From the IMG/VR virus record IMGVR_UViG_2526164690_000021: a DNA stretch of 12,182 nucleotides. One strand, 5' to 3'. Shown here one piece after another: positions 2,936 through 3,508 of this stretch. The position numbers and the translations under genes are program-made. Every line of letters starts with the position of its first letter. Within the stretch, counting starts at the first letter, position 1. The notes below the pieces were generated by a model. The model was given only the letters and a program-made list of their open reading frames with translations. It was not told the DNA's origin and searched no databases. Source of the stretch: a virus (lineage: Duplodnaviria; Heunggongvirae; Uroviricota; Caudoviricetes).

Positions 2936-3449
2936 TATCGCGTCCTCAACAATGAATTTTGTGATGCGGTGCCTGGTGCCTCCAGGTGACGTTAACCAGT
3001 TAACAATTAACGCCGGATACAGAGCATTCTCGTTACTCAGCAAATGACCGCTTTACCGATTTAACTGTTCCGCGTGCGCTGAGCCGCATTCACCGCATCA
3101 CAAAATTCACTTTTAAAAAAGGGCGGCAGAGCAGTCACGGAGTAAAACTGATACCGCCAAATGTCACCAGAATATTGATAACAGAGGGCGTTGCAGCGGG
3201 GTTGTCACTTAAGCGTATGGTCAACCTGACAACCCGGTGTCCTCAACGGGGAAAGAATAACCCCGCCATACTTACCGCCGCGCCATTTCGCGGATTGCCA
3301 CAACCGGAAGCGCACGGTCGAATTAAATTTAACGACGGCTCTAAGGGAGAAGGACTTCGCCGTGCACTTTCGTGTTATGCCCTGACTTTTCAGGGATATA
3401 TCCTTTCAGTAAACTGTCAGTGCCGGATTCTTATCTGTGTCCGGCGCAC

Positions 3450-3483
3450 GACCACACGTAGCAGCGTGTTGGTCTCCATTTTT
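3450..3483 (+). terminator. Candidate intrinsic terminator/attenuator hairpin directly upstream of the zinc-ribbon gene RBS
   Basis: GACCACACG (3450-3458) / CGTGTTGGTC (3465-3474) gives a 9-bp stem with one bulged U and loop UAGCAG, followed by UCCAUUUUU (T-run 3479-3483). Ends 15 nt before GGAGG at 3499. Confidence 0.3.
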
Positions 3484-3508
3484 AATTCAGCCCTTAATGG
3501 AGGATAAA

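Follow-up and report, generated by a model that had tools for sequence, protein, structure and literature searches.

The dicF locus of a lambdoid prophage, with a probable pseudoknotted RNA element upstream of DicF and the leader of a convergent gene

Gene context of the interval

The 12,182-nt stretch of IMG/VR record IMGVR_UViG_2526164690_000021 (hereafter, the window) carries the early-left region of a lambdoid prophage, and the present analysis concerns the untranslated interval that lies in it between dicB (2747-2935, minus strand) and a gene for a protein of 61 amino acids (aa; 3509-3694, plus strand). An initial annotation made from the sequence alone had described part of this interval (3044-3508) as gene-free and structured. 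The interval probably contains two back-to-back RNA units, one per strand: a minus-strand unit extending from ~3419 down to 2936, which includes the gene of the small RNA (sRNA) DicF, and a plus-strand unit at 3387-3508, which leads into the 61-aa gene. The window shares 99.88% identity with Sakai prophage Sp4 over positions 1-11501 (Sakai coordinate = window coordinate + 1,162,611), and the record of O103:H2 12009 is identical to it across 2700-3800. No coding sequence is annotated between dicB and the 61-aa gene in either O103:H2 12009 or Sakai Sp4.

The surrounding genes form, on the minus strand, an early-left operon of the lambdoid type, which starts with a helix-turn-helix repressor (5349-5750), a RelB/RelE pair, a DUF1391 gene (YdfA-like), ydfB, and a 129-aa gene, and continues through the untranslated region into dicB (Pfam PF05358; E = 7e-39), a DUF1482 gene (YdfD-like), an exonuclease gene, xis, and int. 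Thus, dicF is preceded by a repressor and a cro-like gene and followed by dicB, which is the prophage early operon setting in which DicF is located. The order ydfA-ydfB-...-dicF-dicB-ydfD is common to the window and the Qin prophage of K-12, and homology between them extends over both the dicF-dicB spacer and, up to 3448, the spacer that precedes dicF. Where Qin has ydfC, the window has the 129-aa gene together with the 61-aa gene, which runs convergently on the plus strand behind a leader of its own. The interval aligns with ydfC-dicF-dicB of K-12 Qin and with phage Tritos, in which DicF is annotated, and the homology stops at ~3448.

The sole long open frame in the interval occupies 3175-3507 of the plus strand, begins with TTG, and has 110 codons. 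Of 69 distinct homologues, 31 retain 100 or more open codons and the other 38 have the frame disrupted by 1-nt indels, and a protein-coding role for it was rejected. The statement that the interval lacks a credible open reading frame (ORF) therefore holds. That it is gene-free does not, because the minus strand carries a match to RF00039, the dicF sRNA gene, at 3121-3172.

The dicF gene and the RNA structures around it

At 77 bits (E = 4e-17), the RF00039 match lies above the gathering score of 48, and it covers model positions 1-52 of 52 in the Rfam scan. With the U-tail that follows the match, dicF and its intrinsic terminator occupy 3115-3172 on the minus strand. The terminator hairpin, GGCGGUAUCAG...CUGCUCUGCCGCC, has a folding energy of -15.9 kcal/mol and is followed by U6, giving the stem-loop and U-run of an intrinsic terminator. 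Aligned with K-12 dicF, the window copy differs at one base and equals the Rfam consensus. We regard the identification as a DicF locus as practically certain, and the locus is a member of the DicF/dicBF family, every defining feature that could be tested having been found in it. HnrS (EcOnc10-12), a multicopy sRNA of enterohemorrhagic Escherichia coli (EHEC) prophages, was also considered as the identity of the locus and was rejected on account of its location among prophage late genes. The RefSeq records NC_013353.1 (O103:H2 12009) and NC_002695.2 (Sakai) list no noncoding RNA for the prophage copy of dicF, whereas the K-12 gene is annotated, and for this reason the interval had the appearance of being empty. 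The gap is one of annotation, and dicF should be added to the prophage record by annotators.

DicF has been reported to inhibit ftsZ translation, to regulate metabolism, and to activate the virulence regulator PchA in EHEC (PMC9438474, PMC5069750). Its gene sits in a "long untranslated region" of the dicBF operon, and the 5' end of the sRNA is generated by RNase E, while its 3' end results from Rho-independent termination (53 nt) or RNase III cleavage (72 nt) (PMC5069750, PMC9438474). A substantial share of transcripts terminates at DicF in K-12 (PMC5069750). In the window, an A/U-rich, unpaired linker of 17 nt (3173-3189, minus strand; CCCUCUGUUAUCAAUA, then UUCUGG) lies immediately upstream of DicF, and we infer that it is the RNase E cleavage zone generating the DicF 5' end. 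The dicF-dicB spacer (2948-3114, minus strand), which extends to the left of the interval first described, is closed by a 24-nt inverted repeat of 92% complementarity whose arms pair 3114-3091 with 2971-2948. This long helix is a candidate RNase III site for the 72-nt form and fits the published RNase III product, because a DicF of 72 nt with its 5' end at 3172 would extend to 3101, within the arm 3114-3091. The spacer also gave a match to STnc100 (RF02076) at 2958-3107 on the minus strand, with counterparts of the closing helix and internal hairpin of the model, at a score (33.6 bits) that lies under the gathering score of 47 and does not establish membership.

No separate minus-strand promoter for DicF was called by the promoter scan within 3173-3520. 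The proposed course of expression is that early-left transcripts from the repressor-controlled promoter would traverse a structured leader, then an upstream element at 3304-3190 described below, the linker, and DicF. RNase E would cut the linker, as published for K-12, to place the DicF 5' end at 3172, and the DicF hairpin and U-run would terminate transcription to give the 53-nt form. Read-through RNA would be cut by RNase III in the helix 3114-3091/2971-2948, yielding the 72-nt DicF and a freed dicB mRNA.

The upstream element (UE) is a 115-nt domain on the minus strand (3190-3304), supported by covariation, that stands directly 5' of the linker and DicF. It is closed by the helix P0 (3304-3298/3196-3190) and contains the hairpin H0 (3293-3289/3282-3278), the short helix P1 (3277-3275/3199-3197), and the hairpins P2 (3265-3261/3251-3247) and P3 (3234-3227/3207-3200). 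A pseudoknot (3271-3266/3220-3215) joins the H0-P2 junction to the loop of P3. The topology, with a closing helix and three hairpins, is loosely cloverleaf-like; ARAGORN called no tRNA or tmRNA in the window.

Covariation was measured on a covariance-model alignment of 34 distinct sequences, in which 94.9% of the cells were paired compared to 34-56% when the pairing partners were slid. Thirteen pairs were altered on both sides, and none of 500 shuffles equaled the observed value on any of five measures. Changes affected six of the eight pairs in P3 (for example, GGGUUGUCA/UGACAACCC to GAGCUACCA/UGGUAGCUC), at least six different stems were seen at P2, and the pairs of P0 switched among G·U, G-C, and U-A. 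The element is placed on the minus strand because P0 is rich in G·U pairs and because its orientation is fixed relative to DicF. These results indicate that the UE is very probably a real structured RNA. The second commonest variant (L148, L149, and 55 other loci; cdtI/Stx2c type) has an A·C mismatch at the third pair of P3, GGAUUGUCA/UGACAACCC, which would be G·U on the opposite strand.

Neither the UE nor the plus-strand leader matched any family of Rfam 15 in cmscan at E values up to 5, and the Rfam scan of 2900-3800 returned only DicF, the sub-threshold STnc100 match, and a chance match to a small nucleolar RNA. A riboswitch-like strand exchange between the UE and the terminator was rejected, since the terminator stems of phage P1 and the Salmonella phage differ and the 5' strand of the UE is constant. 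Further upstream, a leader helix encloses a variable segment at 3305-3372 (minus strand; arms 3372-3360/3317-3305). It is formed by a 13-nt inverted repeat with 85% complementarity, and its pairs in the 69 homologues are mostly Watson-Crick, with minus-strand G·U at shifting positions.

The plus-strand leader and the 61-aa gene

The plus-strand unit begins with a putative sigma-70 promoter (3387-3415) consisting of a -35 element TTTTCA, a 17-nt spacer, and a -10 element TAAACT, for which a start at ~3421-3423 was predicted. It matches the consensus at eight of 12 positions, including the key A2 and T6 of the -10 element, and was not called by the promoter scan, which has a cut-off of nine. The arrangement TTTTCA-17-TAAACT is kept in all dicF-linked homologues, with the -10 element ending 7 nt before CCGGAT. 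The upstream sequence of phiP27, which is unrelated, has TTGAGA-17-GATAAT (10 of 12 positions) at the same offset from the downstream hairpin HP-B, and a terminator precedes this promoter. The promoter proposed in the initial annotation is thus plausible, conserved in dicF-linked loci, and matched in its offset in phiP27, but it stays below the scan threshold. Two of the three features reported earlier had been placed one base off, although all exist; the corrected positions are 3380-3385 for CCCTGA, 3390-3395 for TCAGGG, 3387-3392 for TTTTCA, and 3410-3415 for TAAACT.

Two hairpins follow. HP-B (3420-3449), which had not been listed before, lies at the predicted 5' end of the transcript and is a constant module at a mosaic junction. 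HP-A (3450-3483) is the stem described earlier: GACCACACG (3450-3458) pairs with CGTGTTGGTC (3465-3474) with one bulged T, making a G+C-rich stem of 5 + 4-5 bp with approximately -13.9 kcal/mol, after which come UCCA and U5 (3479-3483). The region 3420-3488 folds on the plus strand with -31.7 kcal/mol (z = -5.9), a value reached by none of 200 shuffled sequences; the minus strand gave z = -3.5. The description of the region as structured is confirmed by these hairpins, which fold beyond shuffled sequence, as does the upstream palindrome discussed below. In the minimum-free-energy fold of 3420-3515, the segment UCCAUU (3475-3480) pairs with AAUGGA (3496-3501), forming a helix (3475-3504) that masks the Shine-Dalgarno (SD) sequence GGAGGA (3499-3504). 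A CUCC-containing, SD-complementary segment after HP-A and before GGAGG or AGGAGG was found in both leader types. The gene behind the leader starts with ATG at 3509, is annotated in RefSeq (ECs_1061 in Sakai), and is convergent with the early-left operon; its 61-aa product has a CPxC...CPxH motif and matches phrog_10133 (E = 7e-48), of unknown function.

More than 100 loci were recovered when viral contigs were scanned for HP-B, and homology breaks on both sides of the hairpin in at least five contexts. Only 3421-3511 is shared between the window and phiP27, with divergence starting exactly at the ATG. At the position of HP-A, a hairpin is kept with at least three unrelated sequences, namely, GACCACACG/CGTGTTGGTC in the window, CTCCAC/GTGGAG in K-12, and a third type. 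Behind the leader were found at least 10 unrelated ORFs, coding for 57-101 aa (the window at 3420-3694 and ~60 IMG/VR loci), and also a diverged 80-aa homologue of the 61-aa protein. Because at least 10 unrelated small ORFs follow it, the leader marks an accessory-gene, or "moron," slot, with unrelated ORFs, conserved flanks, and expression signals of its own. Phage lambda sieB is an example of a convergent moron. Morons have been described as accessory genes that carry a promoter of their own and have been inserted between modules that are conserved (Juhala et al., 2000, cited in PMC4104026). As in phage morons, small ORFs of varying identity occupy one slot, against the early operon and behind a conserved promoter and leader, and the order in phiP27 (terminator, promoter, leader, ORF) is moron-like. 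The window differs in that what is conserved is a 5' leader made of two hairpins and a segment that masks the SD sequence; the terminator scan found no clear terminator after the 61-aa ORF in the window.

Taken together, these features lead us to lean toward a swappable accessory-gene (moron) expression cassette as the reading of the plus-strand leader. The weak sigma-70 promoter would start an accessory-gene mRNA at ~3421-3423, with HP-B at the very 5' end and HP-A next to it. These 5' hairpins would stabilize the mRNA, and pairing of the CUCC segment with the SD region would damp translation of the 61-aa ORF. A 5'-terminal stem-loop in the 5' untranslated region (UTR) of ompA stabilizes an E. 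coli mRNA, and in the window a stable hairpin is predicted 1-3 nt from the predicted transcription start.

The initial annotation had proposed, for the same strand, a short sRNA, an attenuator, or a terminator-like hairpin, which amounts to a plus-strand RNA that starts at ~3422 and mostly stops at ~3483 at HP-A and U5, as an sRNA of ~60 nt or an attenuator of the 61-aa gene. Two stable hairpins followed by UCCAUUUUU are an sRNA-typical fold (the -31.7 kcal/mol and z = -5.9 given above), a promoter-like element lies at the right distance, and a hairpin is conserved at the HP-A position. However, the T5 run (3479-3483) starts 4 nt past the stem, with UCCA between, and not within the 0-2 nt at which the U-tract of a terminator follows, and HP-A with T5 was not called by the terminator scan. 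The run reads TTTTT, TTCTC, CATTA, TTTAC, or TTTCT in homologues, including close relatives, and the type-B leader has none, while the part that is conserved after the stem is the SD-complementary UCCAU/CUCC. In addition, Table S2 of Tree et al. (2014) lists no orphan Hfq-bound RNA at Sakai 1,165,700-1,166,199, a weak negative because only Hfq binding under the conditions of that study is covered. The stem itself is thus real and a hairpin is conserved ahead of the SD sequence, but the U-run is displaced and variable, and the case for a terminator or attenuator is weak. An sRNA is indeed present, in the form of the known DicF on the minus strand and not as a plus-strand RNA ending at 3483. We consider a plus-strand RNA stopping at HP-A quite unlikely.

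A similarly low probability is assigned to the explanation that HP-A and HP-B function in the dicBF precursor on the minus strand, where they might direct processing or confer stability upstream of the DicF leader, and that their fit to the plus strand is incidental. In K-12-type operons without the plus-strand gene, both hairpins lie inside the transcribed UTR, the minus-strand fold is above chance (z = -3.5), and the HP-B variant TCCGGT gives a minus-strand G·U. Conversely, the module occurs without the dicF leader in phiP27 and at loci L022, L040, and L061, and it always faces a plus-strand SD sequence and ATG where an ORF follows. The plus-strand fold of HP-B was more stable than the minus-strand fold in 15 of 16 variants, by 3-9 kcal/mol (e.g., -17.8 vs. 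-10.5), and several type-A HP-A variants contain plus-strand G·U pairs that would be A·C on the minus strand. A 20-codon minus-strand ORF spanning HP-A and HP-B was rejected because its frame shifts between variants.

It is still more improbable that HP-B is chiefly a recombination linker at a joint of phage-module exchange, without an RNA function. Homology does end on either side of HP-B in at least five neighborhoods, and different ORFs and left flanks are combined around it; but a pure linker need not be a hairpin and would not require a fixed promoter offset or a second hairpin that keeps its position while its sequence varies.

Upstream of HP-B, the palindrome CCCTGA-CTTT-TCAGGG (3380-3395), which overlaps the putative -35 element, folds with -9.1 kcal/mol (z = -3.75). 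Its outer two pairs are broken in 39 of the 69 homologues, the 6-bp stem is intact in ~27, and three carry the compensatory palindrome CTCTGA/TCAGAG; the element could equally be a DNA site. The earlier suggestion took it for a nut element of the boxB type, serving N-like antitermination on the minus strand, which reads CCCUGAAAAG and superficially resembles the lambda boxB, GCCCUGAAAAAGGGC. Within the reach of sequence analysis, this suggestion was rejected as having almost no likelihood, since no boxA (CGCTCTTA-like) lies near 3380-3420 and window-wide boxA matches are at chance level (10 vs. 7.4 expected), the loop AAAG has 4 nt and is not a boxB-type pentaloop, the outer pairs are lost in more than half of the homologues, no N gene is annotated in this prophage or the collinear O103 and Sakai prophages, and the site lies ~2 kb from the early promoter.

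Overall, the interval is probably explained by two units, a minus-strand dicBF UTR and a plus-strand accessory-gene cassette, and the observation is accounted for by known biology because the locus combines a DicF/dicBF member with a moron-like cassette. Several findings weigh against this explanation. The promoter in the window has only the eight matches noted above, under the scan threshold, and two contexts without dicF (L022 and L040) have no good promoter at the corresponding offset. The plus-strand bias of HP-B is not independent evidence, because the search pattern fixed much of its sequence; moreover, some of its variants (GTACCGG) agree better with the minus strand, on which the fold of type-B HP-A is also slightly more stable. 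The set of closely related UE sequences shows no strand bias of G·U over A·C (26 vs. 28). Finally, a convergent plus-strand gene lies between the early promoter and DicF, so that the production of DicF from read-through transcripts is assumed here from K-12.

Other features were observed in the neighborhood. Between the 129-aa gene and the convergent 61-aa gene, an ORF of 50 codons on the minus strand (3732-3884) is unannotated in RefSeq and gave no match in Pfam and PHROG searches; a terminator-like hairpin of the plus strand lies inside it (3742-3757). The RelB/RelE-type toxin-antitoxin pair (4843-5321, minus strand) lies directly downstream of the repressor and comprises the first early-left genes; in Sakai, its homologue ECs1067 belongs to the top 100 coding sequences for Hfq crosslinking (Tree et al., 2014). 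A full-length match to RNA-OUT (RF00240; 98.8 bits) was found at 11547-11616 on the minus strand. The corresponding position in the near-identical genome of O103:H2 12009 is flanked by hokD and an alpha/beta hydrolase gene, with no insertion sequence annotated.

Distribution and possible roles of the upstream element

The UE is the most widely conserved part of the locus and is conserved more than DicF. It was also found in the ban operon leaders of phages P1 and P7, Salmonella phage F1055, an Actinobacillus phage, cdtI-like and Stx2c phages, and many P1-like plasmids; loci with the element include L004, L140, L141, L142, L149, L189, L201, and L208. In the scan of genome contigs, nearly all matches came from Escherichia and Shigella, with a few from metagenome bins. 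A terminator hairpin of variable sequence always follows the UE at a distance of ~15-35 nt, and at least eight different DicF-like terminator sRNAs come after it. These share the GGCGG...CCGCC base of the terminator and the U-run, while the seed and loop vary, and they may constitute a family of sRNAs with different targets. DicF-like sRNA loci 3' of the UE were observed at L006, L012, L018, L040, L057, L069, L075, L078, L120, L140, and L149.

The ban leaders of P1 and P7 share the UE, with compensatory changes in the P2 and P3 helices and the pseudoknot, followed by an intrinsic terminator. The annotation of phage P1 itself names a "dicF-like region." The RNA that follows the element in P1 does not resemble DicF in sequence, and no outer helix P0 is evident there. 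The element lies ~40 nt past the Pban promoter in P1 and P7, before the tRNAs and ban. In the cdtI phage, which has no annotated N gene, the order is PL (TTGACA-16-CATAAT), UE, terminator, and all early-left genes. In the Qin and Sp4 types, the UE lies 1.5-2 kb from the promoter.

As a role for the UE, we tentatively propose that it folds into a scaffold on which the linker is presented and the position of the cut is set. Acting in cis, it would keep the linker single-stranded and determine the cleavage site, and it may also protect the upstream fragment. A role in terminator read-through is the main alternative. In that case, the UE would be a put-like cis antiterminator that allows read-through of the adjacent DicF-type terminator and of later terminators in temperate-phage early operons lacking N. 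The put RNA of HK022 binds the zinc-binding domain of the RNA polymerase beta-prime subunit and suppresses termination in cis (PMC9378689). Like put, the UE is cis-encoded and structured, has two main stem-loops, and is located before terminators in early leaders with no annotated N gene (PMC9378689); unlike put, it has a pseudoknot and a closing helix, and no similarity in sequence or structure was detected by the UE model. The constant placement of the element shortly before an intrinsic-terminator hairpin of variable sequence would suit antitermination, as would its position after Pban and ahead of the tRNAs and ban in P1 and P7, its order relative to PL and the early genes in cdtI, and the lack of an annotated N gene in this prophage. 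Against it, the UE covariance model (R1) gave no hit in the HK022 early region (20,000-33,000) at E values up to 1, which argues against homology to put; termination at DicF is substantial in K-12 (PMC5069750); the RNase E-dependent 5' end of DicF is directly explained by a processing role; and in the Qin and Sp4 types the element is remote from the promoter. We know of no link between the UE and RNA polymerase, and we regard antitermination as unlikely.

DicF itself is already known; what may be new is the UE. The literature searched, which did not cover Faubladier and Bouche (1994), yielded no account of the structure or role of the element, so that a prior description is possible. Although this is less likely than not, the UE could be an uncharacterized class of pseudoknotted, cloverleaf-like cis RNA that licenses either the biogenesis of a family of DicF-like prophage sRNAs with different seeds or terminator read-through. 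It stands at the start of early operons of temperate phages for which no N gene is annotated, at Pban in P1 and P7 and at PL in cdtI. If it antiterminates, it would represent a second protein-independent type that is not homologous to put. The UE offers a handle on the excision of DicF-type sRNAs or on the way in which early operons without N pass their first terminator, and it can serve as a search key for DicF-like sRNAs with new seeds. On the other strand, the conserved leader provides a marker of a hypervariable accessory-gene slot in lambdoid prophages.

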